A stretch of 64,000 nucleotides of DNA, taken from Squalus acanthias (taxonomy: Eukaryota). This document shows, one piece after another, positions 4,622-61,197 of this stretch. The stretch spans positions 83,206,001-83,270,000 of the forward strand of contig CM059432.1 of NCBI GenBank assembly GCA_030390025.1. Reading direction: 5' to 3'. The translations under genes and the position numbers were made by a program. Numbering within the stretch: position 1 is the stretch's first letter; every line of letters starts with the position of its first letter. A model generated the notes under the pieces. The model was not told where the DNA came from. It was given only the letters and a program-made list of their open reading frames with translations, and did no database searches.

Positions 4622-7208
4622 AAAGACCCACAAATAGGAACATAAAAGCGGATTGTAAAAGCTTCTACAAGTATGTAAAAAGAAAAAGATTAATGAAAAC
4701 AAATGTAGGTCCATTACAGTCAGAAACGGGAGAATTTATAATGGGGAACAAGGAAATGGCAGAGCAATTAAACACATAGGCCCGTATTTTCCGATCGCAG
4801 GCCTCCCGCGGGCGGAGGCCTGCGATCTGGAAAAATCTGCCCCCTTACCCGAGGGCTCCCCAGACGTGCACAGTTCTGATGCTGGGCCTCACCAAACTCC
4901 AAGTGCGCAGGGCCCACATATCCCAGAGGCGCATGTAGTTCGCAGCGTCCCTGGGATCATGTGGGCCATGGGGAGCCAATCACAGAAGGGAATCTCCCTT
5001 CATACATTTGACAGGAAGACCTGTCAAATATATGAATGGAGATCAATGAAAAAATAGTAAAACTTTAAATAAATAAAAAAAAACCACCATCACATTTTTA
5101 AAATGACTTGAAATTACAATAAATTAAGTATTTTAAACAAAAATTTAATTTATTGAAAAAAATAATTAAAGTATATTCTGGGGCTAAAAATAAACTGTTT
5201 TTAAAAAAGTATTTTTAAATGATAAGTCAGTGAAAATTTAAAAAAAAAACTTTTTTTCTACTCTTATCCTGGTAAAAGCAGGCCTTACGCCTGCTTTTAC
5301 CAGGCGTAAGAATTGTAAGGGTTTTCTGCGGGCGGAGGGTCTCCAAAAAGCAGAACTATCCACCCACAGAGGCCCTTCTCCAGGGCAGCCGGAGGATCTG
5401 TCAAGAGGATTCCTGACAGATCAGAAATGCCGGTTTTCAGCGCATGCCTGAAACCGGCATTTCCGATGTTCCCACCCGTAGGGATCGGAATATCCGGCCC
5501 ATACTTTGGTTCTGTCTTCATGGAAGAAGACACAAATAACTTCCCAGAAATGCTAGGGAACCAAGGGTTTAGTGAGAAGGAGGAATTAAAGGAAATTAGT
5601 ATTAGTAAAAAAATAGCGATGGAGAAATTAATGGGACTGAAAGTCGATAAATCCCCAGGGTCTGATAATCTGCATCCCAGAGGTAGCCATGGAAATAGTG
5701 GATGCATTGGTTGTCATCTTCCAAAATTCTATAGATTATGGAACAGTTCCTGCAGATTGGAGGGTGGCAAATGTAACCCCACTATTTAAAAAAGGAGGGA
5801 GAGAGAAAACAGGGAACTACAGACCGGTTAGCCTAACATCAGTAGTAGGGAAAATGCTAGAGTCTATTATAAAGGATGTGATAACAGGACACTTAGAAAA
5901 TATCAACGGGATTAGACAAAGTCAACATGGATTTATGAAAGGGAAATCGTGTTTGACAAACCTACTGGAGTTTTTTGAGGATGTAACTGGTAGAATAGAT
6001 AAGGGAGAACCAGTGGATGTGGTGTGTTTGGATTTTCAGAAGGCCTTTGATAAAGTCCCACATAAGAGGTTAGTGTGCAAAATTAAAGCACGTGGGATTG
6101 GGGGTAATATACTGGCATGGATTGAAAATTGGTTAACAGATGGAAACAGAGAGTAGGAATAAATGGGACTTTTTCGGGGTGGCAGGCGGTGGCTCGTGGA
6201 GTACCGCAGGGATCAGTGCTTGGGCCCCAGCTATTCACAATATATATCAATGATTTGGATGAGGGAACCAAATGTAATATTTCCAAGTTTGCTGACGACA
6301 CAAAACTAGGTGGGATTGTGAGTTGTGAGGAGGATGCAAAGAGGCTTCAAGGCGATTTAGACAAGTTGAGTAAGTGGGCAAATACATGAGAGATGCAGTA
6401 TAACGTGGATAAATGTGAAGTTATCCACTTCGGTAGGAAAAACAGAAAGGCAGAGTATTATTTAAATGGTGATAGATTGGGAAATGCTGATGTACAAAGG
6501 GACCTGGGTGTCCTTGTACACCAGTCACTGAAAGCAAACATGCAGGTGCAGCAAGCAGTTAGGAAGGCAAATGGTATGTTGGCCTTCATTGCAAGAGGAT
6601 TTGAGTACAGGAGCAAGGATGTCTTACTACAGTTATACAGGGCCTTGGTGAGATCACACCTGGAGTAGTGTGCGCAGTTTTGGTCTCCTTACCCAAGAAA
6701 GGATATACTTGCCATAGAGGGCGTGCAGCGAAGGTTCACCAGACTGATTCCTGGGATGGCAGGACTGTCGTATGAGGAGAGATTGGGTCGACTAGGCCTG
6801 TATTCACTAGAGTTTAGAAGAATGAGAGGGGACCTCATTGAAATGTATAAAATTCTGACAGGGCTAGATAGACTGGATGCAGGGAGGATGTTTCCCCTGG
6901 CTGGGGGATCTAGAACGAGGGGTCACAGTCTCAGGATACAGGGTAGCACATTTAGGACTGAGATGAGGAGAAATGTCTTCACTCAGAGGGTGGTGAACCT
7001 GTGGAAATCTCTACCACAGAAGGCTGTGGAGGCCAAGTCACTGAATATGTTTAAGGAAGAGATAGATAGATTTCTAGACACAAAAGGCATCAAGGGGTAT
7101 GGGGAGAGAGCAGGAATATGGTATTGAGATAGAGGATCAGCCATGATCATATTGAATGGCGGAACAGGCTCGAATGGCCTACTCCTGCTCCGATTTTTCT
7201 ATGTTTCT
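4622..7208 (+). mobile_element. CR1 LINE, 5'-truncated, disrupted ORF2
   Basis: [49 protein letters not shown]; typical 3' UTR ending CTATGTTTCT. Confidence 0.95.
4779..5500. mobile_element. Harbinger-type MITE inserted in a CR1
   Basis: Imperfect 18-bp TIR GGCCCGTATTTTCCGATC / GATCGGAATATCCGGCCC; TSD ATA; the CR1 sequence rejoins across it. Confidence 0.8.
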
Positions 7209-21846: not shown

Positions 21847-22069
21847 CATATGGATCAGATTGGTTTTGATTCTCGAATTGGATATTATCCTTTTAATACT
21901 TTTTGCTTGCATTTAAAACAAGTGCAGGATATCTAATAATTCATATAATCTACATATTAATGTTGGAAACTATCGGTAAACAGAAAGCAGAATGAGACAT
22001 CAGAAACTGTACAGTTCAGAATTGTACACGTCAACCCAAACTGATCCCTTGATCATTACCACCCACAAA

Positions 22070-22800
<731 letters not shown>

Positions 22801-24712
22801 TTATTTCAAGCTTTAGGGAAACTGCAAGGTCACAGTTGCTCCTGCTGTAAACATACAGAAGTGATGCCTCTAATATTTACAATAGAGAATTGTGTGCACT
22901 TACTGACCTTAGCTTGATCACTGTCAAAATTCTCCCCTGGAGTACCAATCAGGTTGTTGTCCTTGATAGTAGTTTGCAACCCTGTCCTTTTATACTAAAG
23001 AAGACAATGTGGGGTATAGCTTGCCTACACTCACTGTACAAGCTCACACATTTAACCAAGATACTAGAGGGCTGTTTGAGTCTGTGATGTAAAGGAGAGG
23101 GTCTCCAGATGGGAGTTGAAAAGGACTGGGGATTGGATTAAGAGAATGCTGGGACAAGAAGAAATAGAGTGTGCTAAGAGAGCACTGAGAAATTTGTGAC
23201 AAAACCACAAGGCAAAGTGCAGGAAGAACTAGCTGTGTGTTGTAGCACAAGGGTGGGGAGTGTCAGAAGGTCTGGGCAGATTGTTAATTGAGCATTTGGT
23301 TGGGTTTCAATGCAGGTTACAGGCAAGTTCTAAATGCTCGGTCAGCAAAAGAGTAGTGTCAGATGAGTACTGAGGTGAAGTGTTGAGTGGAAGAAGTTAA
23401 TGTCATGTTAACAACAGTCAAGGAAGGGTACTCAGGAAACATTAATGGCAACAATGAGGTTTGTTTAAAGGAGCCTTCCTACATCACAATGAAAAAGCCA
23501 AAACATAATATTGTTTTGCCATCATTGCATCTAACTGCCTCTTGAATGACTCCAGAATTTTGTCTCTACTATCCGACCTAGAACATCATTTCAGGTATTA
23601 ACCACACTTTGCATGAGAAATAAGAACATAAGGACCTAAGAAATAGGAGCTGGAGTAGGCCATTTGGCCCTTTGAGCTTGCTCCGCCATTCAACAAGATC
23701 ATGGCTGATCTTCTACCTCATCTCCACTTTCCCGCCTGATCTCCATATCCTTTGATTCCCCTAGAGTCCAAAAATTTATCGACTTCTGTCTTGAATATAC
23801 TCAACAACTGAGCATTCACAGCTCTCTGGGGTAGAGAATTCCAAAGAAATTTCTCCTCATCTCAGTCCTAAATGGCCGACCCCTTATTTTGAGGCTGTGA
23901 CCCCGTGTTCTAGATTCCACAACCAGGAGAAAGATTTTCTCAGCATTAACCCTGTCAAACCCCTTAAGAATTTTATATGTTTCAATTAGATCACCTCTCC
24001 TTCTAAACTCTAGGGAATATAGGCCTAGTCTACTCAATCTCTCCTCATAGGGCAATCCTCTCATCCCAGGAACCAGTCTAGTGAACCTTCATTGCACTCC
24101 CTCTAAGGCAAGTATATCTTTCCTCAGGTAAGGAGACCAGAACTGTACACAATACTCCAGGTGTGGTCTCACCAGGGCCCTGTATAATTGCAGTAAGACA
24201 TCTTTACTCTTGTACTCAAATCCTTTTGTAATAAAGGCCAACATACCATTTGCTTTCCTAATTGCTTGCTGTACCTGCATGTTAACTTTCAGTGATTCGT
24301 GCACAAGGACACCCAGGTCCCTCTGAATGCAAACATTTCCCAGTCTCTCACCATTCAAAAAATATTCTGCTTTTTTGTTTTTCCTACCAAAGTAGATAAC
24401 TTCATACTTCCCCACATTGTATTCCATTTGCCATGTTCTTGTCCACTCAGTCAACCTTTCCATATCTCTCTGCAGCCTCTTTGCGTCCTCCTCACAGCTT
24501 ACTTTCCCACCTAACTTTGTATCATCAGCAAACTTGGATACTTTACACTCAGTCCCTTCATCTAAGTCATTAATATAGATTGTAAATAGCTGAGGCCCAA
24601 GCACTGATCCTTGCGGTACCCCGCTAGTTACAGCCTGCCAACCCGAAAAAGTCCAGTTTATTCCTACTCTCTGTTTTCTGTCCATTAACCAAACCTCAAT
24701 CCATGCTAATAT

Positions 24713-32098: not shown

Positions 32099-34368
32099 GG
32101 CCTAGAAATTGGATGCTTTAAGGCCGGTTTTGTAGAAGAAATGGCTGCTGCCATTGACAGCGAAGGCTTCTCAAATTGAAATCAGCAGATTGTGACGTCA
32201 ATCAACGTGCAACGCCTGATTTGATGCCATGACTGCTAATTTGGACGTTCTCGCTCTCCATTACGCTATGTCCTGAATACGCATAGAAAAGCATGCGAAA
32301 CGCAGCCCTGCAGAGACACTGTCAGTGCTTCTTAAAGGGACACACACACCTTTCAGGTAAGTTTGGATTTCAGCTTTTGGACTGTTATTTTTTATACTTT
32401 ATTGAAGTAGTGGCTTGGTGCAATAGAGGTTAAAAGTTTTTGGAGTACAGGAGGTGCTGCTGGATGCTTGCAAGGCTTCGGATTGTGAAGGAAAGCCTCT
32501 GAGAAGACAGAAAATGCTGGAAATACTCAGCAAGTCAGGCAGCATCTGTGGAGAGAGAAACAGAGTTAATGTCTCAGGTCGAGATGCTGCCTGACCTGCT
32601 GAGTATTTCCAGCATTTTCAGCTTTTATTTCAGATTTCCAGCATCTGCAGTATTTGGCCTCTGAGAAGACCACTTGCTCACAGTCCTCGGGGGCACATGG
32701 AGATGAAGCAGAGGCAGCAAAGGAGACAAGCTGCTCTCAGAGGGACGAGGAAGAAGTAGGAGGAAGATGCAGAAGAGGAAGCAGAAGAGGAGGGAGCAGA
32801 AGATGAAGACGCAGAAGAGGGAGAAGCAGAAGGAAGGATGCAACCCAGACAGTCCATTTCTGACTGCGATATCCAGGATGGATTCATCCGCTTGCGGTAC
32901 CAGTGAACACACCCCCAATTCCCCTTTCAACATTTGTCCCACACCTTACCTTCCCTCTGTTACTGACCATCACAGCATCCTCTTGGCCACAATGCTGAAA
33001 TAAAAGCCACCACAAAGCAAACTTTCCAATCCAGCTTTATACATCTATCCATCCAATATGACATCAAGAAATCAACTCATCAACAATATGCATTCCGTTA
33101 GTGACTGTCTTGTGTGTGGCTTTGCCTATCTTAGTGATGTAACGCAGTGCTACCCCAGTGGCTGCAGCATGGCTGGTGGAAGGCTGCTGACTTTCAGTGG
33201 GGGACACTGCAGATGGCCTTGCAGGACGACCTTGAGGAGCTGCTGGCTGGGAGTGTCAAATCGAGTTTCTTCTTCTTCTTCTTCACTCTCCTCCTCCTCT
33301 TCTTGGTGAACCATTGGCTGGGCAGGCTGGATTTCTTGGGTGTCTGAAATGAGGAAGGCACAAGGGTAGGGTTGTGGTGAGGGGAATGTGGGAAAGCAAG
33401 AGCTGCACGCTTACAAGGGATGTAAGAAGGACGATAACTTATGAGGATACCATCATCCTGTATCCTTTTAGCCCCGCCATTGGCCAAGGGCTCAGCCATA
33501 CCCTTGCCAAGAATGGCCAGCACTGTTTCCTCCAAGGGGGTGAGCTGAAGCTAGGAATGTGAGGCGTGCCTCGTGTTTGGTACAGATTGTTGGTAGATGA
33601 GTGATGGTTGCGGGGGGGGTGAGGTGGGGAGGTGTCGTGCAATGAACAGTGTGTGAGGCTAGTGGTGCAGTTGGTAGGAAACAGCTTTTGAACCTTCACT
33701 GACCTTGACCACTGGTCTTAGGTCATGAAACTTCTTTGGGCACTGGAGCCAGGTGGTGGGGGCAACACTGCTGGCAGTGATGGCTTTGGTGATCTGGTCC
33801 TATATCGTTCTTTCTGGGCCCCTGTGGGTCGAGGGCCTGTCTTGCAATGTTGACCCCCTGCACAAAGCTGGAGTGCTGCGATGAGACCCTGGGTGCCCCA
33901 CCTGGCTTGTTGAGTCATTAATGCTAGCGCTGAAGCACGTTTACCATTTTTTTTATGTGCAGGAGGCAGTTCAGCTTTAAGAGCTAAAGACTACCATTTT
34001 GGAATTATTTGTATTTTTTTTCAGTAAGCAGTTGAGCTCTAAGGGTAAACACTGCCTATTTTTAAATTATTTTTATTTATTTCATTTTAGAAGGCAGTTC
34101 CCCTTTAACAGCTCAACACTGCTTTCTAAAATGACAGGCTAGCTTTAAGACAATGCTGCCTCGCTCCAGGGATGCTACGGCCACGCTACATTGGGCCTCC
34201 TGCTGAGACTTCCGCCTGAAACAGCGTGTTACGCAGTAGGTTTTGCATTCGGATCATTTAAGTCAGTAGGCAGCACCAAAATACTGCCTGCGCTCTTTTT
34301 GAGGGTGGCCGTTAACCTCGGCCCATGGAGGCACTGGCCGTTTCCGGGCCTAATCAAATTTCTAGGCC
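32099..34368. mobile_element. internally deleted PIF/Harbinger DNA transposon
   Basis: TIR GGCCTAGAAATT(G/T)GA; TSD ATA. Plus strand has an acidic transposase-like C-terminus (EEDAEEE...GFIRLRYQ*, stop 32904-32906). Minus strand has Myb/SANT-ORF-like remnants (KKFHDLRPVVK about 33705-33737; LTPLEETVLAILG about 33505-33545). Confidence 0.75.
32509..32656. mobile_element. miniature non-autonomous PLE (inverted arms + tail), 14-bp TSD
   Basis: Same family as 4233-4471, with the centre missing; TSD GCCTCTGAGAAGAC at 32495-32508 and 32657-32670. Confidence 0.82.
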
Positions 34369-34611
34369 ATAAAATTCTTAAAGGGCTTGACAGGGTAGAT
34401 GCTGAGAGGTTGTTTATAGAACTAGGGATCTCAGTCTCAGAATAAGGGGTCGGCCATTTAGGACTGAGATGAGGAGTAATTTCTTCACTCAAAGGGTTGT
34501 GAATCTTTGGAATTCTCTACCCCAGAGAGCTGTGGATGCTCTGTTGTTGAGTATATTCAAAAATGAGAAGTCGCACAACACCAGGTTATAGTCCAACAGA
34601 TTTATTTAATT

Positions 34612-34650
34612 TTACAAGCTTTCGAAGCAGTTCGCTCCTTCGTCAGGTAA
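34612..34650 (-). ncRNA. minimal type I hammerhead ribozyme motif (inverted copy)
   Basis: Exact reverse complement of 37627-37665. Confidence 0.7.
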
Positions 34651-35461
34651 GTTAGCAATGAGAGAATCTCCCAGAATTCACAATTTAAACCCAGACAAAA
34701 TCTATTCACATTATTCCCTGCAACAAGGAGCACAGTCAAGACAATGAGATGTGTCCCAGGGGGTCCAACGTGTCAAACCACCTGCTGGCTGCATATCCTG
34801 TCAATTTGTGTTCTTGTGTTAGCCTTTTTAAAAAAAAAAAACACCTGGGAAGACCGGCCATGATGTCAAGTCACGTTCTGTATCGTGACATGAACCCGAT
34901 ATCGCGATTGAGGCCATCCTCATGAGTGCGGAACTTGGCTATCAGTTTCTGCTCTATGATTTTGCGCTGTCGTGTATCTCGAAGGCCGCCTTGGAGAACG
35001 CTTACCCGCAGATCCGAGGCTGAATGCCCCTGGCTGCTGAAGTGTTCCCCGACTGGGAGGCAACCCTCCTGCCTGGCGATTGTTGCGCGGTGTCCGTTCA
35101 TACGTTGTCTCAGTGTCTGCATGGTCTCGCCGATGTACCATGCTCTGGAGCATCCTTTACTGCAACGTATCAGGTAGACAACGTTGGCCGAGTCACATGA
35201 GTATGTACCGTGTACCTGGTGGGTAGTGTCCTCACGTGTAATGATGGTATCTGTGTCCATGATTTGGCATGTCTTGCAGAGGTTGCCGTGGCAGGGTTGT
35301 GTGGTGTCTTGGTTGCTGTTCTCCTGAAAGATGGGTAATCTGCTGCGAACGATGGTACTTTTGAGGTTAGGCGGCTGCTTGAAGGCGAGTAGTGGAGGCG
35401 TGGGGATGGCCTTAGCAAGGTGTTCGTCGTCATCGATGACATGTTGAAGGCTGCGAAGAAC

Positions 35462-37408
35462 CCTAAGCTTGACATGTATGCTCAAGCTGTCAGGAAATGC
35501 ATCAACGCCAGATTCATCAGCCGTACTCACAAGACAGTCCAGAATGTCACCCGAGCACAACGCAACGCCATCCACGCACTCAAGACCAACCGCAACATCG
35601 TCATCAAACCAGCGGACAAAGGAGGAGCCATCGTCATACAGAACAGAACGGACTATTGCAAAGAAGCATGCCGACAACTGGACAACCAGGAACACTACAG
35701 ACAGCTACCCGCAGATCCGACCAAAGAACACACCCGCCAACTCAATAGACTGATCAAGACCTTCGATCCAGACCTTCAAAACATCCTACGCGCTCTCATC
35801 CCACGTACTCCCCGCGTAGGAGACTTTTACTGCCTCCCAAAGATACACAAAGCCAACACACCCGGACGTCCTATCGTATCAGGCAACGGAACCCTGTGTG
35901 AGAACCTCTCTGGGTACGTCGAGGGCATCCTGAAACCCATCGTACAGGGAACCCCCAGCTTCTGTCGCAACACTACAGACTTCTTGCAGAAACTCAGCAC
36001 CCATGGACCAGTTGAACCAGGAACACTCCTCGTCACAATGGACGTATCGGCACTCTACACCAATATCCCCCACAATGACGGCATCGCTGCGACAGCCTCA
36101 GTACTCAACACCAACAACAGCCAATCTCCGGACGCCATCTTACAACTCATCCGCTTCATCCTTGACCACAATGTCTTCACCTTCGACAACCATTTTTTCA
36201 CCCAAACACACGGAACAGCCATGGGGACCAAATTCGCACCCCAATACGCCAACATCTTCATGCACAAGTTCGAGCAAGACTTCTTCGCTGCACAGGACCT
36301 CCAACCAACGCTGTACACCAGATACATCGACGACATCTTCTTCCTTTGGACCCACGGCGAAGGATCACTGAAAGGACTACACGATAGCATCAACAGGTTC
36401 CATCCCACCATCAAACTCACCATGGACTACTCCTCAGAATCGGTTTCATTCTTGGACACACGAATCTCCATCAAAGACGGACGCCTCAGCACTTCACTCT
36501 ACCGCAAGCCCACGGACAACCTCACGATGCTCCACTTCTCCAGCTTCCACCCTAACCACGTTAAAGAAGCCATCCCCTATGGACAAGCCCTGCGAATACA
36601 CAGGATCTGCTCAGACGAGGAGGAACGCGATGGACACCTACGGACACTGAAAGACGCTCTCGTAAGAACGGGATATGACGCTCGACTCGTCGATCAACAG
36701 TTCCGACGGGCCACAGCGAAAAACCGCATAGACCTCCTCAGAAGACGAACACGGGACACAACCAACAGAGTACCCTACGTCGTCCAGTACTTCCCCGGAG
36801 CGGAAAAACTACGCCATGTTCTTCGCAGCCTTCAACATGTCATCGATGACGACGAACACCTTGCTAAGGCCATCCCCACGCCTCCACTACTCGCCTTCAA
36901 GCAGCCGCCTAACCTCAAAAGTACCATCGTTCGCAGCAGATTACCCATCTTTCAGGAGAACAGCAACCAAGACACCACACAACCCTGCCACGGCAACCTC
37001 TGCAAGACATGCCAAATCATGGACACAGATACCATCATTACACGTGAGGACACTACCCACCAGGTACACGGTACATACTCATGTGACTCGGCCAACGTTG
37101 TCTACCTGATACGTTGCAGTAAAGGATGCTTCAGAGCATGGTACATCGGCGAGACCATGCAGACACTGAGACAACGTATGAACGGACACCGCGCAACAAT
37201 CGCCAGGCAGGAGGGTTGCCTCCCAGTCGGGGAACACTTCAGCAGCCAGGGGCATTCAGCCTCGGATCTGCGGGTAAGCGTTCTCCAAGGCGGCCTTCGA
37301 GATACACGACAGCGCAAAATCATAGAGCAGAAACTGATAGCCAAGTTCCGCACTCATGAGGATGGCCTCAATCGCGATATCGGGTTCATGTCACGATACA
37401 GAACGTGA
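35462..37408 (+). CDS. PLE polyprotein: reverse transcriptase + GIY-YIG endonuclease (N-terminally truncated, uninterrupted)
   Basis: IKPADKGG, GRPIVSG, TMDVSALYTNIP, GTAMGTKFAPQYANIFM, YIDDIFFLW, Cys linker CHGNLCKTC, and VVYLIRC...WYIGET...R...H...E...GLN. The first 14 codons of the ORF-track entry (35420) come from the inverted arm. Confidence 0.93.
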   Translation, partial: PKLDMYAQAVRKCINARFISRTHKTVQNVTRAQRNAIHALKTNRNIVIKPADKGGAIVIQNRTDYCKEACRQLDNQEHYRQLPADPTKEHTRQLNRLIKTFDPDLQNILRALIPRTPRVGDFYCLPKIHKANTPGRPIVSGNGTLCENLSGYVEGILKPIVQGTPSFCRNTTDFLQKLSTHGPVEPGTLLVTMDVSALYTNIPHNDGIAATASVLNTNNSQSPDAILQLIRFILDHNVFTFDNHFFTQTHGTAMGTKFAPQYANIFMHKFEQDFFAAQDLQPTLYTRYIDDIFFLWTHGEGSLKGLHDSINRFHPTIKLTMDYSSESVSFLDTRISIKDGRLSTSLYRKPTDNLTMLHFSSFHPNHVKEAIPYGQALRIHRICSDEEERDGHLRTLKDALVRTGYDARLVDQQFRRATAKNRIDLLRRRTRDTTNRVPYVVQYFPGAEKLRHVLRSLQHVIDDDEHLAKAIPTPPLLAFKQPPNLKSTIVRSRLPIFQENSNQDTTQPCHGNLCKTCQIMDTDTIITREDTTHQVHGTYSCDSANVVYLIRCSKGCFRAWYIGETMQTLRQRMNGHRATIARQEGCLPVGEHFSSQGHSASDLRVSVLQGGLRDTRQRKIIEQKLIAKFRTHEDGLNRDIGFMSRYRT

Positions 37409-37626
37409 CTTGACATCATGGCCGGTCTTCCCAGGTGTTTTTTTTTTAAAAAGGCTAACACAAGAACACAAATTGACAGGATATGCAGCCAGCAGGTGGT
37501 TTGACACGTTGGACCCCCTGGGACACATCTCATTGTCTTGACTGTGCTCCTTGTTGCAGGGAATAATGTGAATAGATTTTGTCTGGGTTTAAATTGTGAA
37601 TTCTGGGAGATTCTCTCATTGCTAAC

Positions 37627-37665
37627 TTACCTGACGAAGGAGCGAACTGCTTCGAAAGCTTGTAA
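37627..37665 (+). ncRNA. minimal type I hammerhead ribozyme motif (PLE pLTR)
   Basis: TTAC CTGACGA A GGAGC-gaact-GCTTC GAAA GC TT GTAA: stem I TTAC/GTAA, CUGANGA and GAAA cores, 5-bp stem II, palindromic AAGCTT in place of stem III. Confidence 0.7.
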
Positions 37666-38816
37666 AATTAAATAAATCTGTTGGACTATAACCTGGTGTT
37701 GTGCGACTTCTCATTTTTGTCCACCCCAGTCCAACGCCGGCATCTCCACATCATGACGGAGTATATTCAAGACAGAGATTGATAGACTTTTGGATACTAA
37801 AGGAACCAAGGGATATGGGGATAGTGCGGGAAGGTGGAGTTCAGGTATATCAGCCATGATCTTATTGAATGGCGGAGCAGACTCGAAGGGCCAAATGGCC
37901 TACTCCTGCTCCTATTTTTTATGTTCTGATTTAGCAGCAGAACTGTTTACCATTACAATCTGTAGCCTCATGGTGTAGCGCATTCTTCACTCCTCGATCA
38001 CCGTAAAGGCAGGAGACCAATCCTGGTTCAATGCAGGGTGTAGAAAGGTGTGGCAGAAGCAGCATTAGGCATACATTAGAACAAGGTAAAACCATAGTAA
38101 AGCTACTACACAGGACTACATCAGTGCTAAACACTAAAAGCAGAAGGCTATAGACAGAACATAGTACAACAAACAGATCCAATCAAGAATGGTGGTGGAC
38201 ACTTAGGGAACAGGAGGAGGAAGCTCCATGAGCATGTTCTTGCTGAACCATTGTGAAGCCCAGCATGTGAGTGCCAGAGATAAAGCTGAAGCATTTGCAA
38301 GTGGAACAAAAATCGGGTGGGTTCTACAACGGGCAGGTGATCCACTCTTCCAGGTTACTGCCCAGGCGGCGAAGTGGAAAATGACCCCTATTATTTCTAA
38401 GTTATTTTTTAAATATTCAAAATGTATATTCATGCTTGGCCAGTTTTCCAAACTGTATGTGATGCAGCTGCAGTACCATGTTTCATTGCACTACCATTGA
38501 TCCTATCAGTAGCTTCCCTCCATGATTAACCACATTGGCACACTGAATTGAATTATTTAAACATTTTGCTCTGTAAATAAAAAGCCTTTCTAACTTGCAT
38601 ATTTTTTCCATCCAGTTGTTTTTTTGATCTAACATAGTGGTAAAGTAGACAGTTCATAAAAGTAGACAGAAATTTATACTGAATTATCTTTCAATCGAAC
38701 ACAAACCACATTTAAAGTGCTTTTTCATAAACTCCTTATGGAGGAGATTCAGTTCATGGTCAGGACCCATCTCTAAAAAATATGAAACTGCCATCATGCT
38801 GGGTGATGGTTGAAAA

Positions 38817-42650: not shown

Positions 42651-45600
42651 TCATAGAATCATAGAATAGTACAGCACAGAAGGAGGCCATTCGGCCCATC
42701 GAGTCTGCGCCGGCTCTTTTGAAGAGCAATCCAGTTAGTTCCACTCCCCCGCTTTTTCTCCATATCCCTGCATTTTTTGCTCCTTCAAGTATTTATCCAA
42801 ATGCCTTTTGAAGGCTACTATTGAATCTGTATCCACCACCCTATCAGGCAGTGCATTCCAAATCCTAACCATTCGTTGCGTAAAAAATGATTTTCCATAT
42901 GTCGCCTCTGGTTCTTTTGCCAATTACCTTAAATTTGTGCCCTCTTGTTATTGACCCTTCAGCCATTGGAAACAGTTTCTCTTTATTTACTCTATCTAAA
43001 CAGTTCATGATTTTAAACACCTCTATCAAATCTCCTCTTACCCTTCTCTGCTCCAAGGAGGACAACCCCAGCTTCTCTAGTCTATCCACGTAATTGTAAT
43101 CCCTCATTCCTGGAACCATTCTAGTAAATCTCTTCTGTACACTCTCCAAAGCCTTCACGTCCATCCTAAAGTGTGGTGCCCAGAATTGGACACAATACTC
43201 CAGCTGGGGCCAAACTAGTGTTTTATAAAGGTTTAGCACAACTTCCTGGCTTTTGTACTCTGTGTCTCTATTTATAAAGCCCAGGATCCCATATGCTTTA
43301 TTAACTGCTTTGTTAACCTGTCCTGCCACCTTCAACGATGTGTGAACAAGCACCCCCAGGTCTCTCTGTTCTTGCACCCCCTTTAAATTGTAACATTTAT
43401 TGTGTATGGTCTCTCCTCATTCTTCCGAGCAAAATGTCTCACCTCACACTTCTCTGCGTTGAATTTCATCTGCCATGTGTCCACCCATTCCACCAGCCTG
43501 TCTATGTCTTCTTGAAGTCTATTACTATCTTCCTCACTATTTACTATACTTCCAAGTTTTGTGTCATTGGCAAATTTCCAAATTGTGCCCTGTACCCCCA
43601 AGTCCAAGTCATTAATGTGTATCAAAAATAGCAGTGGTCCTGGTACTGAACCTTGGGGAACTGTACTGTATACCTCCCTCCAGTCTGAAAACAGCCATTC
43701 ACCACAACTCTGTTTTCTATCCCTTAGCCAATTTTGTATCCATGCTGCTACTGCCCCTTTTATCCCATGGGCTTCAAGTTTGCTAACAAGCCTACTATGT
43801 GGTACTTTATCAAACGCCTTTTGAAAGTCCATGTATGCAACATCAACTACACTGCCCTCATCCACCTTCTCTGTTACCTCATCAAAACACGATTTGCCCT
43901 TAACAAATTTGTGCTGGCTCTCCTTTGTTATTCCATGCTTGTCCAAAGTGGTGGTTAATTTTCTCCCGAATTATTGTTGCTAAACTGACTGGCCTGTAAT
44001 TTCTAGGTTTATCTTTCTCCCCTTTTTTGAACAAGCATGCAACATTTGCAATCCTCCAGTCCTTTGGCATCACCCCTGTATCTAACGAGGATTGGAATAT
44101 TGTGGCCAGCACCTCTGCAATTTCTACTCTTACTTCCCTCAGCAACCTAAGGTGCATCCCATCCGGACCGGGTGACTTACCTACTATAATTACTGCCAGC
44201 CTGTCTAGTACCTTGTCTTTATTTTTAACACATCCAGTATCCCAGCAACCTCCTCGTTTACCATAGCTTTGGCAAAGTCTTCTTCCTTGGTAAACACCGA
44301 TGCAAGTACTCATTTAGTACCTCAGCCATGCCTTCTGCCTCCACAAATTGTTCTCCATTTTGGTCCCTAATCGGCCCCACTGCTCCTCTGACAACCCTTT
44401 TATTGTTAATATGCCTATAGAAGACCTTTGGATTCCCTTTTATGTTAGCTGACAATCTATTCTTGTACTGTCTCTTTGCCCCTCTTAACTCCTTTTTCAC
44501 TTCTCCTCTGTACTCTTTATATTCATTATGATTCTCCCTTGTATAGGAAGCTGACATCTATTCTGACGATACCACCAGTGCTTCCGATATGTCTTTCTTT
44601 TTCTTCAACCGAGGATTCCCCTTCACCGTGGTTGGCAGGGCCCTCGACCGTGTCTGTTCCATTTCCCGCACTTCTGCTCTCACCCCTTCCCCTCCCTCCC
44701 AGAACCACAATAGGGTTCCCTTGTCCTCACCTTTCACCCCACCAGTCTCCACATTCAACGGATCATCCTCCGCCATTTCTGCCATCTCCAGCGTGATCCC
44801 ACCACCAAACACATCTTCCCCTCCCCTTTCAGCATTCTGAAGGGACCGTTCCCTCCGTGACACCCTGGTCCACTCCTCAATCACCCCTTCCCTGTCCCAC
44901 GGCACCTTCCCGTGCAAGGGCAGGAGATGCAACACCTGCCCTTTTACCTCCTCCCTTTGCATTGTCCAGGGCCCCAAACACTCCTTCCAGGTGAAACAGC
45001 GATTTACTTGTGCTTCATCCAATTTAGTATATTGTATTCACTGCTCATGATGCGGTCTTCTCTACATTGGGGACACCAAATGCAGATTGGGTGACCACTT
45101 TGCAGAACACCTCCATTCAGTCTGCAAGCGTGACACCGAGCTTCTGGTCACCTGTCACTTTAATTCTCCGCTCTACTCCCACTCTGATCTCTTTGTCCTC
45201 GGCCTCCTACTCTGTTCCAATGAAACTCAACGTAAGCTCGAGGAACAGCACCTCATCTTTCGATTAGGCACTTTACAGCCTTCCGGACTCAACATCGAGT
45301 TCAACAATTTCAGATCATAACCTCTGCCCTCATTTTTTCCAGACAGCCGCTGTTGATGATTCTGCTATTCCCATTTACACCTCTTCTAGAACCATCTTTT
45401 GTTTCTTTACTTGTCCCATTACCATCTCCTTTTGCCTTGCACCATCATCCCTTTTGTCATTTAATCTCTCCTACCTTCCACCCTATCACAGACCTTCCCT
45501 TTTGTTCTTTCCTCTCCTCCCCCCTTTCCCTGCCTCTGCACTTGCTTAAAACCTGTTATATCTCTAACTTTTTCCAGGTCTGTTGAAAGGTCATCGACCT

Positions 45601-49273: not shown

Positions 49274-51074
49274 GGCCTAGAAATTCAGGGGTTTAGTGCC
49301 AGCTGTTAAGGCCGGTTTTGTGGAAAAAATGGCATCGGATGCCATATTGGTGAGGGCAAAAAAGTGGCATTGTTTCGCTTCGTCTGACGCAGTCGTTAGG
49401 CCATTAACATATTCAAATAAAGAGCCGAATGCCTGCTTCTGCTCCTCTTGCAAACTTGGCTTGCGTCTGAGGCAGCCAACGCCAGCTTGTTCACTCCTGG
49501 GAAAACAAACGTTAAACAGCGCCGAACGAAAATAAGGTAAGTACTTACCATTATCATCTGACTCCTGACTCCGACCTCCAGGCCCGCTCCAATCCCCCCA
49601 AACCCCGATCCCGACCTCCCCCACCTATCCTGGCCCCAACCTTCCCCTCCCCACCCCCCATCCTGGACCCGACCTCCCCCCCCCCCATCCTGGCCCTGAC
49701 CTCCCCCTCCCCACCCCCCATCCTGGCCCCGACCTCCCCCTCCTCCCCCCACACCCTCCCCCCATCCTGGCCCCGACCTCCCCCCCCCCCCCCCCCCCAT
49801 CCTGGCCCCAACCTCCCCCCAGACCCTCCCCCCATCCTGGACCCGACCTCCCCCCCACCCCCCCCATCCTGGCCCCGACCTCCCCCTCCCCACCCCCCAT
49901 CCTGGCCCCGACCTCCCCCTCCTCCCCCCACACCCTCCCCCCATCCTGGCCCCGACCTCCCCCCACCCCCCCCCCCCCCCATCCTGGCCCCAACCTCCCC
50001 CCAGACCCTCCCCCCATCCTGGCCCCGACCTCCCCACACCCTCCCCACATCCTGGCCCCGACCTCCCCCTCCCCACCCCCCATCCTGGCCCCGACCTCCC
50101 CCTCCTCCCTCCACACCCTCCCCCCATCCTGGCCCCGACCTCCCCCTCCTCCCCCCACACCCTCCCCCCATCCTGGCCCCGACCTCCCCACACTCTCCCC
50201 CCATCCTGGCCCCGACCTCCCCACACTCTCCCCCCATCCTGGCCCCGACCTCCCCACACTCTCCCCCCATCCTGGCCCCGACCTCCCCCCACCCCCCCCA
50301 TCCTGGCCCCAACCTTCCCCCTCCTCCCCCCATCCTGGCCCCGACCTCCCCCTCCTCCCCCCACCCTGGCACCCCCCTCTCCCCCCCTCCTTCCTCCCCC
50401 CTCCTGGCCCCGACCTCCCCCCCCCCCCCCCCACAACCTGGCCCCGACCTCCCCCGCCCGCCCCCCCCCATCCTGGCCCCGACCTCCCCCTCCCCCCCAT
50501 CCTGGCCCCAACCTCCCCCTCCCACCCATCCTGGCCCCAACCTCCTCCTCCCCCCATCCTGGCCCCTCCCTCCCCCTCCTCCCCCCTCCCTCCCCATCCT
50601 GGCCCCCCCTCCCTCCCCATCCTGGCCCCGACCTCCCCCTCCTCCCCCCACCCTGGCACCCCCCTCTCCCCCCCTCCTCCCCCCTCCTGGCCCCGACCTC
50701 CCCCCCCCCCCCCCCCCACAATCTGGCCCCGACCTCCCCCGCCCGCCCCCCCCCATCCTGGCCCCGACCTCCCCCTCCTCCCCCCATCCTGGCCCCGTCC
50801 TCCCCCTCCCCCCCATCCTGGCCCCAACCTCCCCCTCCTCCCATCCTGGCCCCAACCTCCCCCTCCCACCCAACCTGGCCCCGACCTCCCCCTCCCACCC
50901 AACCTGGCCCCGACCTCCCCCGCCCGCCCCCCCCCATCCTGGCCCCGACCTCCCCCTCCCCCCCATCCTGGCCCCAACCTCCCCCTCCCACCCATCCTGG
51001 CCCCGACCTCCCCTCCCCCCCCAACCTTCCCCCATATCCTGACCCCGACCTCCCCCTCCCCCCCTTTCTAGGCC
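49274..51074. mobile_element. Harbinger-type element (GGCCTAGAAA TIR) carrying an expanded minisatellite
   Basis: TIR GGCCTAGAAA / TTTCTAGGCC; TSD ATC/CTC; 5' end resembles 32099-32145. Confidence 0.72.
49600..51064. repeat. C-rich (G-rich on minus strand) minisatellite, unit about 22-37 nt with core CCATCCTGGCCCCGACCTCCCC
   Basis: Dozens of tandem variant copies with variable C-runs. Confidence 0.95.
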
Positions 51075-53304: not shown

Positions 53305-56251
53305 GGGCCAGGATTTTGTGAATGAAGATGTGCTGGAGGCGGGACTGCTGGTTGTCAGGTTTCAGTCCCGCCCCCAGCGACGTCTGACGAACGCACGCTA
53401 TTTTCCCTTGATTGGCCTTGTTAAGCCCGCCTTGCAGGTTTAGCCGGCCAATTAAGGGAAAGCTGGTGACAGAGGACGTCAGTGTATGACGTTTCATCTG
53501 TCGAAAATTATTTGACAGATGAATTGTCAGCGTTTGGCAGCTTTGAGAAGCTGTCAAACACTGACAATCTCTGTTCTAAGGTGAGCCCTTGCACAAAGAT
53601 TCACCAAAACCTCTCTCCTCAGCAGAAAGCAGATGGCTGCTGCATCTGAGAATGCAGCAGCCATTCTGTCATCTCTGCTGTTGAAATGAGGCACCTCCGG
53701 ATCCCCAAGGGTTGAAGCCTGCAGGAAGAAGCAAAGGTAAGTAAATCATAGAATCATAGAAAGTTACAGCACGGAAGGAGGCCATTTCGGCCCATCGTGT
53801 CCACGCCGGCCAACAAAGAGCTATCCAGCCTAATCCCAGCTCTTGGTCCGTAGCCCTGCAGGTTACAGCATCCCAAGTGCACATCCAAGTACTTTTTAAA
53901 AGTGGTTAGTGTTCCTGCCTCTACCACCCTTTCAGGCAGCGAGTTCCAGACCCCCACAACCCTCTGGGTGAAGAAATTTCCCCTCAAATCCCCTCTAAAC
54001 CTTCCACCAATTACTTTAAATCTGTGCCCCCTGGTTTTTGACCCCTCTGCTAAGGGAAATAGGTCCTTTCTATCCACTTTATCTATGCCCCTCATAATTT
54101 TATACACCTCAATAAGGTCTCCCCTCAGCTTCCTCTGTTCCAAGGAAAACAGACCCAGCCTATCCAGTCTTTCCTCATAGCTAAGATTCTCTACTCCCGG
54201 CAACATCCTTGTAAATCTCCTCTGTACCCTCTCCAGTGCAATCACATCTTTCCTGTAATGTGGTGACCAGAACTGCACGCAGTACTCTAGCTGAGGCCTA
54301 ACTACTGTTTTATACAGTTGAAGCATAACCCCTCTGCTCTTGTATTCTATGCCACGGCTAATAAAGGCAAGCATTCCGTATGCCTTCTTAACCACCTTAT
54401 CTACTTGGCCTGCTACCTTCAGGGATCTGTGGACATGCACTCCAAGGTCCCTTTGTTCCTCTACACTACTCAGTGTCCTACTGTTTAATGTGTATTCCCT
54501 TTCCTTGTTAGCCCTCCCCAAACGCATTACCTCACACTTCTCCAGATTGAATTCCATTTGCAACTGTTCTGCCCACCTGACCAATTTATTGATATCTTCC
54601 TGCAGTCCACAGCTTCCTTCTTCAGTATCAACCACACAGCCGATTTTAGTATCATCTGCAAACTTCTTAATCATACCCCCTATATTCAAGTCAAGATCGT
54701 TAATATATACCACAAAAAGCAAGGGACCTAGTACTGAGCCCTGCGGAACCCCACTGGAAACAGCCTTCCAGTCACAAAAACACCCATCAACCATTACCCT
54801 CTGCTTCCTGCCTCCGAGCCAGTTTTGAATCCAACTTGACACTTTGCCCTGGATCCCATGGGCTTTCAACTTCGTGACCAGTCTGCCATGTGGAACCTTA
54901 TCAAAAGCCTTGCTAAAGTCCATATACACTACATCAAACGCACTACCCTCATCTACCCTCCTTGTTACCTCCTCAAAAAATTCAATCAAGTTTTTCAGAC
55001 ACGACCTTCCCTTAACAAATCCGTGCTGACTATCCTTGATTAATCCGTGTCTTTCTAAATGAAGATTTATCCTGTCCTTCAGAATTCTTTCCAATAATTT
55101 TCCCACCACTGAGGTTAGGCTGACTGGCCTGTAATTACTCGGTCTATCCTTTTTTCCCTTTTTAAACAAGGGTACCACATTAGCAGTCCTCCAGTCCTCC
55201 GGCACCACACCTGAAGCCAGAGAGGATTGAAAAATGATGGTCAGGGCCTCTGTTATTTCCTCTTTTGCTTCACTTAACAGTCTGGGATACATTTCATCCG
55301 GGCCTGGGGATTTATCCACTTTTAAAGCTGCTAAACCCCTTAATACTTCCTCTCTCACTATGTTTATTTCATCTAATATTTCACACTCCTCCACCCCGAT
55401 AGCAATGTCTGCTTTGCCCCTCTCCTTTGTGAAAACAGATGCAAAGTATTCATTAAGAACCCTACCGACATCTCCCGCCTCCACACACAGATTACCCTCA
55501 TGATCTCTAATAGGCCCTATCCTTTCTTTAGTTATCCTCTTACTCTTAATATATTTAAAGAACATCTTTGGGTTTTCCTTGATTTTACTTGCCAAGAATT
55601 TGTCATGCTCTCTCTTTGCTTTCCTAATATCATTTTTAATTGCACTCCTGCACTTTCTGTACTCCTCTAAAGATTCTGGAGTATTTAGCCCTCGGTATCT
55701 GTCATATGCCTCCCTTTTTTTCTTTATCCTACTCTGTATGTCTCTAGGCATCCGGGGGCTCTAGATTTGTTAGCCCCACCTTTTTTCTTTAAGGGCACAT
55801 GTTTGGTCTGAACCCTCCGGATCTCCTCCTTGAATGCCTCCCACTGCTCTGACATTTTTTCTAACACTTTATACTCACCTCTCATACTTACCTGTCCACA
55901 CTTGCACCCATCACTCACCTCTACAGCTGACATCTGGACCCCTCTCACCCCTGCAGACCCACTGCTCGCCTCGCTGACACTAGCGGGGTTTCCCGATGTC
56001 GGGAAGCCTACACTTGCAGGGGTAAAATGGGGATAAGCCTCTTAACTGCCTGTTAACTACCTGTTAACAGGCAGTTAATTGGCTCTAATCCCTTCCCGCC
56101 TCGAGGAGATGGGTCCCTGCGTGAGTCGGGGACCCGCCTCCAGGGAAGATGGTTCGGAGGCGGGTTGGGAGCGGGGTTGGGACCCGCTCCCAATTTTTCC
56201 CACCAGTCCCGCCTCCAAACCTGCCTCCTCAGGGCTGGTAAAATCCAGCCC
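53305..56251. mobile_element. Harbinger-type MITE (family of 28993-29903) split by a CR1 insertion
   Basis: Colinear with 28993-29903 on both sides of the CR1; ends GGGCCAGGATTTT / AAAATCCAGCCC; TSD CAA/CAT. Confidence 0.8.
53745..55852 (-). mobile_element. young CR1 with an uninterrupted 2-kb RT ORF (53754-55751), 5'-truncated
   Basis: 665 codons without a stop; all RT motifs present; TTCTATGA tail. Confidence 0.96.
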
Positions 56252-58798: not shown

Positions 58799-61197
58799 GG
58801 CCTGGATTTTGCGGTCAGCGGCAACGTGTTGGCGCTCGCCGCTGACCTTGAAGAAAGTTGCCCACAAACATCTAGCGGCCTCTGTGGCATCAATTTAATC
58901 TTTCCCAACATTAATTTCATTCTGCCGCCAACTCAAGGCGATCTCCAACATCCAGCAACAGTGATTGGCAAAGGAGGAACTGACGCAACTCAATATCTCT
59001 AAGGATATGGTGTTAAGGAAGCTAAAGGGATTGAAGGCGGACAAATCCCCAGGGCCTGATAACATACATCCTAGGGTACTGAGGGAGGTGGCCCTAGAGA
59101 TAGCGGATGCACTAAGTATGATTTTTCAGAATTCATTAGACTCGGGAACAGTGCCCATGGATTGGAGGGTAGCTAACGTTACCCCACTATTCAAAAAGGG
59201 GGGTAGGGAAAAAGCAGGTAATTACAGACCTGTAAGCCTTACATCAGTTGTGGGCAAAATGCTGGAGTCCATCATTAAGGATGAAATAGCGGAGCACTTA
59301 GCAAATGGGGACAGGATAGGACAGAGTCAACATGGATTTACAAAGGGTAAATCGTGCTTGACTAATCTATTGGAATTTTTTGAGGGAGTAACTGGTAAAA
59401 TAGATGGGGGAGAGCCAGTAGATGTGGTGTACCTGGACTTCCAAAAGGCCTTCGACAAGGTCCCACATAAAAGATTAGCATGGAAAATTGAAGCTCATGG
59501 GATAAAGGGGAAAGTATTGACGTGGATAGAGAACTGGCTGTCAGATAGAAAACAGAGAGTTGGAATAAACGGCTCATTTTCTGAATGGCAGGCAGTAACA
59601 AGTGGGGTACCACAGGGATCTGTCCTGGGTCCCCAGCTGTTCACAATTTACATTAATGACCTGGATCAGGGAGTCGGATGCAGCATTTCCAAATTTGCAG
59701 ACGACACTAAACTAGGAGGGGGGGTGGGCTCAGAGGAGGAGACCAGGAAGCTCCAGAGCGATTTGGACAGACTGGGTGATTGGGCGGATAAATGGCAGAT
59801 GCACTATAATGTGGACAAGTGCGAAGTTATCCACCTTGGGTGCAGGAACGGGAGGGCAAATTATTATTTAAATGGCAATAAATTGGGAGAGGGGGAAGTA
59901 CAGAGAGACCTGGGTGTTCTTGTACACCAGTCACTGAAGGCGAGCATGCAGGTGCAACAGGCGGTCAAGAAGGCAAACGGTATGCTGGCCTTCATAGCAA
60001 AAGGGTTGGAATACAGGAACAGGGATACCTTGCTGCAGCTGTACAGGGCACTGGTGAGACCACACCTCGAGTACTGTGTACAGTTTTGGTCGCCTCATCT
60101 GAGGAAAGATGTTCTTGCCATGGAGGGGGTGCAGCGGCGATTCACCAGGCTGATACCAGGAATGGCGGGATTGACCTATGAGGAGAGACTATGTAGTTTA
60201 GGGATGTACACACTGGAGTTTAGAAGATTGAGAGGGGACCTCATAGAAGTGTATAAAATTCTGACAGGTCTAGACAGACTAGATGCAGAAGGAATGTTTC
60301 CCTTGGCGGGTGAGAACAGAACTAGAGGACATAATTTAAGGATAAGGGCTAAACCATTTAGGACAGAAATGAGGGGGAATTTCTTCACTCAGAGGGTGGT
60401 GAACCTGTGGAACTCATTGCCACAGAGGGCAGTGTACGCCAGCTCATTAAATATATTTAAGAGGGAATTAGATATATTTCTACAGGCAAAAGGGGTTAAG
60501 GGTTACGGAGAGAAGGCGGGGACGGGATACTGAATTGGAGGATCAGCCATGATCTCATTAAATGGCGGAGCAGGCTCGAAGGGCCGGATGGCCTACTCCT
60601 GCTCCTATCTTCTATGTATCTATGTATCTATATGTCATCAAGCTGGCTAAGCAGCCAATCACATTGAAGAATTCTCACAGCCAGCAAACCAAGAAGTAAA
60701 ATACACTGATTCACCTCCATTTTTGATAACTATTACAAAGAGTGAAATAAAGATTGGGACATACACATGGGATTAAGGTAGAAGCTGTAATATCATAAAC
60801 GAACTTAAAAAAATATATATTAAAAACCATGGAATTTTTATCATAATGAAAAAATTTGACATTTCACAAATATAAGATTAGTTTTTCAGGGCCAGGATGG
60901 TTGTTCAGCAGTAGCTTTGACTCACTACACTGTTAAAAACCCAGTTGCACCTCATTGAACAAGGCTTAACTTTTGAGGGTTTTTAGAGCATAAAAACTGA
61001 TGTTCTCCTCAGTTCAGTGATTTCAATTGATTGCCGGCTGTGGGGAGTTCAACAGCAACTGTGATACTGACAGCAACTTCTGGATTTCTGCGTTTAACTG
61101 CGCATGTTCGGACACCAGAAGTTGCTGTCAGTGTCATAGTTGTAATGATAGCAAACGCTGACAGTTTTGCCGTCATTACAACCGCAAATTCTGGGCC
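58799..61197. mobile_element. Harbinger-type MITE split by a CR1 insertion
   Basis: TIR GGCCTGGATTTTGCGG / CCGCAAATTCTGGGCC; TSD TAT. Confidence 0.82.
58966..60631 (+). mobile_element. young CR1 with an uninterrupted RT ORF (to 60533), 5'-truncated
   Basis: 522 codons without a stop; CTATGTAT tandem tail. Confidence 0.96.

Follow-up and report, generated by a model that had tools for sequence, protein, structure and literature searches.

A probable single insertion of two head-to-head, 5'-truncated Penelope-like element copies in a LINE of Squalus acanthias

Endonuclease-positive Penelope-like elements (PLEs) are described as carrying an inverted, 5'-truncated copy adjoining their 5' end and a tail of 30-40 bp at one end (PMC8557442), and PLE copies flanked by inverted pseudo-LTRs (pLTRs) and duplications of 9-10 bp have been reported (PMC3846280). 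For the anole PLE, both target strands are cleaved and extended, AT-rich DNA with ATT is preferred, target homology is not needed, and two internal start sites are used whose spacing equals the tail; dimerisation is predicted through residues 27-173 (PMC11167929).

The window analysed here is the whole stretch of 64,000 nt from S. acanthias (contig CM059432.1). A preliminary description had singled out a long inverted repeat in it. Self-comparison recovered both arms at the claimed positions (Table 1) with a spacer of 1356 nt, matching the claimed loop of 1.36 kb, and this repeat was the longest self-match of ≥ 88% identity in the window. A special status of the repeat was not borne out, the layout being the published insertion pattern of the class (PMC8557442, PMC3846280); on the reading favoured below it is a by-product of integration and no functional device. 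The locus is in all probability one insertion, composed of a 2.3-kb forward and a 0.9-kb inverted PLE copy, both 5'-truncated and placed head to head in a LINE, likely non-autonomous and likely primed from two nicks.

Table 1. Positions of the features in the window.
Feature	Position	Strand	Basis
Target LINE 3' end, left part (abundant LINE)	34369..34548	+	empty-site colinearity; very high summed depth in 4/4 runs
Left target-site duplication, 12 nt	34549..34560	+	12-mer repeat
Inverted, 5'-truncated second copy, 904 nt	34558..35461	-	arm alignment
Mirror minimal hammerhead motif, core start 34646 (outer limits inferred from mirror)	34612..34650	-	motif scan
Head-to-head junction, 1-nt overlap	35461	.	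family letters upstream in contigs
5'-truncated ORF, 648 codons plus stop, first Met at 35474	35462..37408	+	ORF scan, relative alignment
DKG; RT motifs A; B; C	35606; 36038; 36212; 36320	+	motif location
Cx2-5CxxC linker; VVY; YIG; conserved R/H/E/N	36986; 37097; 37142; to 37364	+	motif location
Right arm of inverted repeat, 902 nt, belongs to forward copy	36818..37719	+	arm alignment
Minimal type I hammerhead motif, 3' UTR	37627..37665	+	motif scan, folding
One-sided tail, 39 nt (39-42 given left ambiguity)	37720..37758	+	translation vs P0143
Right target-site duplication	37759..37770	+	12-mer repeat
Target LINE 3' end, right part	37771..37930	+	empty-site alignment

As claimed, the arms differ by one substitution (T at 37131, C at the mirror position 35148; codon Phe or Ser) and by 2 nt in a homopolymer (T/A run near 37438). 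The letter at 34736 and its mirror are common to both arms and absent from 99.8% of the depth of the public run X1, so the arms derive from one source lineage. The inverted copy contains the end of the RT thumb region, the Cys linker, the GIY-YIG domain and the 3' UTR, and it has no tail. Other copies of the family were not found by blastn elsewhere in the window.

Assignment to the endonuclease-positive PLEs is made with high confidence. The DKG motif, RT motifs A, B and C and the C-terminal endonuclease motifs were all located, in agreement with the RT and GIY-YIG of the preliminary description. The RT was recognised by Pfam (RVT_1, E=1.1e-8, above cut-off). Pfam gave no match for GIY-YIG in the element protein, and the domain, with its CCHH motif and conserved R, H, E and N, was placed by alignment with relatives; PF01541 occurs in 52-77% of the members of the top Atlas clusters. 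A search for solved structures resembling the protein gave no match. Since the arms repeat the 3' part of the ORF and the protein combines RT with GIY-YIG, the locus was taken neither for a DNA transposon with terminal inverted repeats nor for a DIRS element. The Cys linker was likewise present, having been taken as a mark of Neptune, and it is a feature of Neptune or Nematis (PMC8557442). A similar motif was found in all 95 top relatives having a YIG motif, among 120 examined.

The closest proteins are from sharks. XP_067848012.1 of Heptranchias perlo (91% identity, in a cluster of 54) and XP_072357570.1 of Scyliorhinus torazame (84% identity) belong to the same protein family and share the start sequence found in the tail of the insertion; such shark PLE proteins at NCBI are annotated merely as uncharacterised. 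In a tree of 25 rows, comprising vertebrate and invertebrate relatives and no clade-labelled reference, the element protein falls within an all-shark clade (support 100/99). An abundant family with near-identical copies agrees with the high contig depth in public runs: in X1, the summed depth is 2.1e5-1.1e6 across 35440-37455 and 121 in a unique flank bin, which indicates abundance and not copy number. The public runs were analysed as contigs; X8, RNA by guess and perhaps DNA, was not used for expression. No published description of this abundant shark PLE family was found in a literature search. A metagenome scan returned 20 distant loci (24-56% identity), of which the 5 checked had no inverted pairs; it was uninformative for the shark family.

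As described, the ORF has zero stops in 648 codons (35462-37405); it is also free of frameshifts. The RT had been called intact, which is true of the RT, Cys linker and GIY-YIG motifs and not of the ORF, whose 5' part is missing. In a protein alignment its first residue falls 244-245 residues into P0143 and P0144, two shark relatives, and contigs of X1 carry the family sequence on upstream of 35461. The median number of upstream residues is 226 in 55 relatives of ≥ 800 aa, taken from the 108 of 142 proteins with an alignment that begins within query residues 1-60. The N-terminal part of P0004 (residues 1-240) gave no tblastn match within the window. A pseudo-LTR arrangement is present as the inverted second truncated copy, and the N-terminal domain and direct upstream pLTR of a full-length element are absent. 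Since about 245 N-terminal codons and the upstream direct pLTR are missing, the copy is, judging from the sequence, likely non-autonomous. The in-frame Met could still yield a product of 644 aa, presumably inactive.

The preliminary description had also placed the insertion 12 kb from the promoter of TRAM1. A gene which we take to be TRAM1-like has the start of its exon 1 at 22575 (minus strand), 12.0 kb from the insertion; the distance holds, and the gene is transcribed away from the site. Pfam gave no match for the 40-aa exon 1 piece, and seven short motifs of a gene expected upstream of TRAM1 gave no convincing exon. In 62 long ORFs at 24-64 kb, only RT and endonuclease matches were obtained and no host-gene domain at the curated cut-off, a search that short exons would escape. 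Effects of the repeat through dsRNA, ADAR or siRNA, a cruciform or TRAM1 are physically possible but speculative. The copy could be imagined as an intact, active source whose read-through 900-bp hairpin feeds siRNA or ADAR pathways or affects the TRAM1-like promoter. The arms are predicted to pair over 902 bp in RNA (-1906 kcal/mol), the catalytic motifs are unbroken, and any pLTR promoter in the left arm would face the TRAM1-like gene; Penelope pLTRs have a promoter (PMC8557442), and a rotifer is known to have small RNAs from PLEs (PMC3846280). This reading is very improbable nonetheless: besides the truncation, the orientation of the TRAM1-like gene and the lack of host-gene domains in those long ORFs, sense promoters in the two arms would both face outwards and not across both arms, and the runs consist of contigs with one guessed RNA.

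Both flanks belong to the 3' end of one LINE, presumably CR1-like. The empty site restored in silico aligns without gaps to 4/4 long paralogous LINE ends listed from the window, and 2/4 of these contain the same 12-mer once. The duplication had been described as perfect over 12 bp; the 12-mer does recur on the right, and the length is to be read as 9-12 bp because the last 3 nt of the left copy are also part of the arm. The target is AT-rich and nearly palindromic (at 12 of 14 nt), and a duplication of 10 bp, which falls inside this range, would be exactly symmetric. The bias of Neptune-style elements towards microsatellites, a reported tendency and not a defining feature, was not seen at this single target. 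Contig joints that skip the element were assigned to paralogous LINE copies and not to an empty allele, other letters lying in between.

The same flanks bear on the possibility of a fold-back artefact in the assembly. Structures of this kind cause difficulties in assembling genomes (PMC8557442), and no record spanning the central junction, a flank junction or an empty allele was present among the joints (15 of 398) and pieces (32 of about 150,300) listed. T at 37131 also has no listed depth in 4/4 runs, which is a weak point; contigs drop rare variants. An artefact is barely conceivable, however, given that the flanks make up one LINE in colinear order, carry the 12-mer in duplicate and are both matched by X1 and X3 contigs with 0-1 differing letters, and that the arms differ at two places and have as their asymmetry a biologically meaningful tail.

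The tail consists of the leader of the family ORF and its two initial codons, Met-Thr. Its translation matches the segment of P0143 before and including its start, and P0144 also begins with Met-Thr; in length and origin it agrees with the one-sided tail of 30-40 bp, from the pLTR-ORF junction, of the class. Microhomology at the right junction is predicted to be absent (third codon of the relatives, Thr; first letter of the target, G). The hammerhead motif of the terminal repeat has a 4-bp stem I, a CUGANGA core at 37631, a 5-bp stem II and GAAA, and helix III is absent. Cleavage is predicted after 37661 (folding z -2.06 for 57 nt), and in run X7 one G-U of stem II becomes G-C. Rfam gave no match for the hammerhead at E up to 5, and over 34000-38200 only a chance snoRNA match (E=5). 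Neither the tail nor the hammerhead motifs were mentioned in the preliminary description.

Priming from both target nicks is the route we favour, with some reserve. A full-length source copy elsewhere would have made a tandem or read-through RNA, as is suggested by the tail being the start of a next ORF. The GIY-YIG endonuclease would have nicked both strands of the near-palindrome 9-12 nt apart, consistent with the duplication. cDNA synthesis could then, as for the anole PLE in vitro, have begun from each 3'-OH at one of two internal sites with a spacing of 39-42 nt, leaving a tail at one end only. The cDNAs would have halted at about 2.3 and 0.9 kb and been joined almost blunt, with the 1-nt overlap. 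The comparison with the anole PLE is one of analogy, its start sites being 111-118 nt inside the ORF and those proposed here at and immediately ahead of the start codon. The asymmetry rule relating arm starts to tail end is drawn from this one locus and the literature. Whether the locus is even a clean in vivo footprint, with a PLE dimer cutting a preferred near-palindromic LINE site almost symmetrically and copying one RNA twice from two fixed starts, is a tentative and rather doubtful extension.

A single RT that started from the right nick, proceeded for 2.3 kb and jumped onto its own cDNA, with the tail trimmed by the endonuclease, would leave an identical final sequence; in a variant, self-priming on antisense RNA makes the inverted arm. 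Antisense self-priming and endonuclease-mediated resolution are published hypotheses (PMC3846280, PMC8557442), and fold-back accounts directly for near-identical arms. The sole perfect 12-bp palindrome of the element (36839-36850; 0.56 expected in 2.3 kb) sits 21 nt from the 5' end of the inverted arm, and a small predicted hairpin begins at the 5' end of the forward copy (z -1.4, 121-nt stretch). The published case, however, rests on junction palindromes, whereas a long spacer and a 1-nt overlap are seen here and no palindrome centred on the junction at 35461 was found. Two RT start sites explain the tail without trimming (PMC11167929). Jointly, the two fold-back variants are considered unlikely, and two-ended priming is retained.

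The insertion had been called very recent. This stands only in a relative sense (a young-looking family, one arm substitution), and the absolute age could still amount to 10^4 to 10^6 shark generations. The one difference between the arms corresponds to 5.5e-4 per arm (95% CI 1.4e-5 to 3.1e-3). Taking the mutation rate of another shark, 7e-10 per generation (PMC10587355), this divergence could mean about 8e5 generations (2e4 to 4e6, by hand division). CpGs, described as undecayed, have an observed/expected ratio of 0.93 in the ORF (0.38 in the window left of the insertion, 0.30 right), and at 3 of 24 checked element sites a CpG was lost in this copy. An older insertion kept uniform by gene conversion between the arms would fit this number of generations and at least five spacer sites (35670, 35969, 36140, 36658 and 36696, among 40 of 120 differences listed) that differ from ≥ 98% of the X1 family depth, two of them lost CpGs. 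It is nevertheless improbable in view of the undisturbed reading frame, the CpG ratio and the perfect duplication. The rare spacer letters may come from the source copy, and pieces that match the spacer exactly (99 and 158 nt) have depths of 1566 and 2041 in X8 (unique flank bins 2-7). That X1 lacks the letters at 35670, 35969 and 37131 is no proof of a polymorphic insertion, since contigs drop rare variants.

As a typical PLE integration by-product with a layout already well described for the class, the single locus carries little weight. Its value is that of a clear example: the target can be resolved, and both cDNA start points and the central junction are at hand. Abundant shark PLE families could serve to tell two-ended priming from fold-back; if the footprint reading is true, a count of arm starts, shared templates and target motifs could settle the long-standing question of the origin of inverted PLE copies. 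A long near-perfect inverted repeat persisting in a slow-mutating genome is also a usable marker of inverted-repeat stability.

An L1-type twin-primed inversion was rejected, the inverted arm duplicating the right arm of the forward copy. L1 twin priming yields an inverted part that does not repeat the forward one; the two cases are alike in second priming from the other nick and in a blunt or microhomology junction. With the PLE insertion unit described by Craig et al. 2021 (PMC8557442), the locus shares the RT followed by a C-terminal GIY-YIG, the hammerhead in the terminal region, the inverted 5'-truncated copy at the 5' end and the one-sided tail. Here, the main copy is also truncated and has no direct upstream pLTR, and the inverted arm, at 0.9 kb, is long and extends well into the ORF. 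Pen2/Pen2a of Adineta vaga (Arkhipova et al. 2013, PMC3846280) show the same head-to-head inverted repeats and insertion in another retroelement, and their 9-10 bp duplication and 31-bp tail into the ORF start are similar to those found here. Their arms measure about 180-220 bp and frequently meet at a palindrome, whereas ours are 0.9 kb and have no junction palindrome. PAc, a Poseidon element of Anolis carolinensis (Frangieh et al. 2024, PMC11167929), likewise starts RT internally, close to the pLTR-ORF junction, and has a tail between two start sites, an AT-rich target and a hammerhead motif. The Poseidon clade is without the Cys linker which the shark element has, and PAc starts about 110 nt into the ORF with a hammerhead overlapping the start codon, whereas the hammerhead at the present locus lies about 90 nt upstream of that codon.

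The element is correctly assigned to the Penelope-like elements (PLEs), its inverted repeat is real, the copy is truncated and the architecture is ordinary. The inverted repeat that the preliminary description placed at 34549..37770 is present, and the near-identity claimed for its arms holds: they differ by one substitution and by 2 nt in a homopolymer, across a gap of 1356 nt. The proposed 12-bp target site duplication is found as a repeated 12-mer, but its length is 9-12 bp, since the final three letters of the left 12-mer are also compatible with the arm. In-silico excision of the insertion rebuilds the 3' end of a LINE, which was aligned without gaps to the four long paralogues listed from the window; the same 12-mer is present once in two of these four. 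That the inversion is a fold-back artefact of the assembly is very improbable, because the LINE halves are colinear, the target is duplicated, the arms differ from each other and the tail carries meaningful sequence. No record spanning a junction or representing an empty allele was seen among the 15 of 398 joints and 32 of ~150,300 pieces listed.

Coordinates of the element and of neighbouring features in the window
Feature	Position	Strand	Remark
Left arm (inverted copy)	34558-35461	-	
Right arm (part of forward copy)	36818-37719	+	
Substitution between arms	37131		
12-mer repeat	34549-34560; 37759-37770		
Forward unit	35461-37758		648 codons
One-sided extension (tail)	37720-37758		39 nt; right end, absent from left arm
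Minimal hammerhead motif, right arm	core 37631	+	
Minimal hammerhead motif, left arm	core 34646	-	
Near-palindrome at target	34547-34560		12 of 14 positions
Degenerate tandem repeat	33952-34082		62-nt unit; immediately left of target LINE
Inverted repeat	34082-34134		17 nt
TRAM1-like exon 1 (first coding)	22456-22575	-	starts at 22575; GT donor
CpG island	~22000-23000		at TRAM1-like first coding exon
Fragment of another PLE family	44817-45293	+	old, stop-riddled; 34% identity over Cys linker and GIY-YIG region
C-rich minisatellite	49618-51022		period ~33, ~42 copies; extreme GC skew, opposite strand G-rich
Uninterrupted LINE RT frame	53757-55760	-	668 codons
Uninterrupted LINE RT frame	58965-60530	+	522 codons

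The stop-free ORF was confirmed in the forward unit. The encoded reverse transcriptase (RT) has an RVT_1 Pfam match, and DKG and motifs A-C were located. A Cx2-5CxxC linker separates it from a GIY-YIG domain that carries CCHH and conserved R, H, E and N; this domain was assigned from motifs and from neighbours in Atlas, and the element protein gave no Pfam match for GIY-YIG. The nearest proteins are from sharks (Heptranchias, 91%; Scyliorhinus, 84%), and the element protein falls inside an all-shark clade with support 100/99 in a tree of 25 rows, none of them clade-labelled; a shark is thus the likely host. The linker from which Neptune had been proposed is described as a mark of Neptune or Nematis, not of Neptune alone (PMC8557442); the element is a putative, and likely, Neptune member.

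The RT had been called intact. It is free of interruptions as far as it goes, but the ORF is cut at the 5' end: ahead of its first codon, P0143 has 244 and P0144 245 extra residues, both being shark relatives (median of 226 upstream residues among 55 relatives of at least 800 aa). The N-terminal 240 residues of another relative, P0004, had no match anywhere in the window. Family sequence extends upstream of 35461 in two contigs of sequencing run X1, and from this continuation the overlap at the central junction is 1 nt. The absent part includes the region corresponding to residues 27-173 of an anole PLE, which are predicted to dimerise (PMC11167929). Given the missing residues and the lack of a direct pseudo-LTR (pLTR) upstream of the ORF, the copy is likely non-autonomous; a 644-aa product could be made from the Met at 35474.

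CpGs described as undecayed have an observed/expected ratio of 0.93 in the ORF versus 0.30-0.38 in the remainder of the window, but at 3 of the 24 element sites that were checked a CpG has been lost. All four runs compared, from two coded organisms, show the family to be abundant. In X8, a run only guessed to be RNA, short pieces identical to the element copy reach a depth hundreds of times that of the unique flank, which does not equal copy number. The element copy is not of the family majority type: five sites in the spacer and one in an arm deviate from at least 98% of X1 depth (40 of 120 rows listed). One arm difference corresponds to 5.5e-4 per arm (95% CI 1.4e-5 to 3.1e-3), which at the epaulette shark rate of 7e-10 per generation (PMC10587355) gives ~8e5 generations (2e4 to 4e6, hand division). 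If the RT or the assembly introduced the difference by mistake, the age is near zero. "Young" is fair, "very recent" not demonstrated.

The tail and the hammerhead motifs had been overlooked. When translated, the tail matches P0143 just ahead of its start codon and at that codon itself, so the template RNA continued past the 3' UTR into the start of the next ORF. Minimal hammerheads that lack helix III are described as the usual form in PLEs (PMC6155905); Rfam gave no hammerhead match in the element, and in a variant from run X7 one stem II G-U is G-C. Around the motif (37645-37670, 34607), loose ends of X1, X3 and X7 contain subfamilies with other sequence.

The 3' ends of both copies face outward, toward the target nicks, and their starts on the RNA are 39-42 nt apart. 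The anole PLE protein cleaved and extended both strands in vitro, preferred AT-rich DNA and did not require target homology; it has two internal start sites, whose distance is the genomic tail (PMC11167929). Here, the target is AT-rich, and its near-palindrome may be a preferred insertion site. Consensus lines of X7 and X8 loose ends show a perfect palindrome at this position in other LINE copies. The simplest reading, which we somewhat favour, is that priming would have occurred twice, once per target nick, and that two truncated cDNAs would then have been joined almost bluntly. Alternatively, a single RT may have jumped onto its own cDNA or self-primed on antisense RNA, as was suggested from palindromes at inverted junctions (PMC3846280); the element's sole 12-bp palindrome lies 21 nt from the central junction (0.56 expected per element), but none is centred on it. 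Two primings and a single RT jump cannot be separated from the sequence alone.

The minus-strand exon left of the element belongs to what we take to be a TRAM1-like gene, transcribed leftwards, away from the element. Among 62 long ORFs at 24-64 kb, only RT and endonuclease matches were above the cut-off, in a scan that left out six low-complexity-repeat ORFs and one other long ORF and that short exons escape. The long LINE RT frames suggest further young retroelements nearby. A hypothetical transcript through both arms would be paired over 902 bp. Because the pLTR of Penelope has a promoter (PMC8557442), putative sense promoters in the arms would aim outwards, the left one toward the TRAM1-like gene.

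No description of this shark family was found in the literature, searched without Repbase and Dfam; in a 2026 preprint, both Neptune and Poseidon are reported from five vertebrate classes (10.64898/2026.07.22.740005). A distant PLE on metagenome contig L001 has 99% direct repeats of 300 nt (1507-1806, 4931-5230) on either side of the ORF, as is classic for elements with direct pLTRs. An inverted 5'-truncated copy with a one-sided tail is given as common in PLEs (PMC8557442; PMC8969392). The rotifer examples in PMC3846280 likewise have inverted terminal copies, there of pLTRs, with duplications of 9-10 bp as compared to 9-12 bp here.
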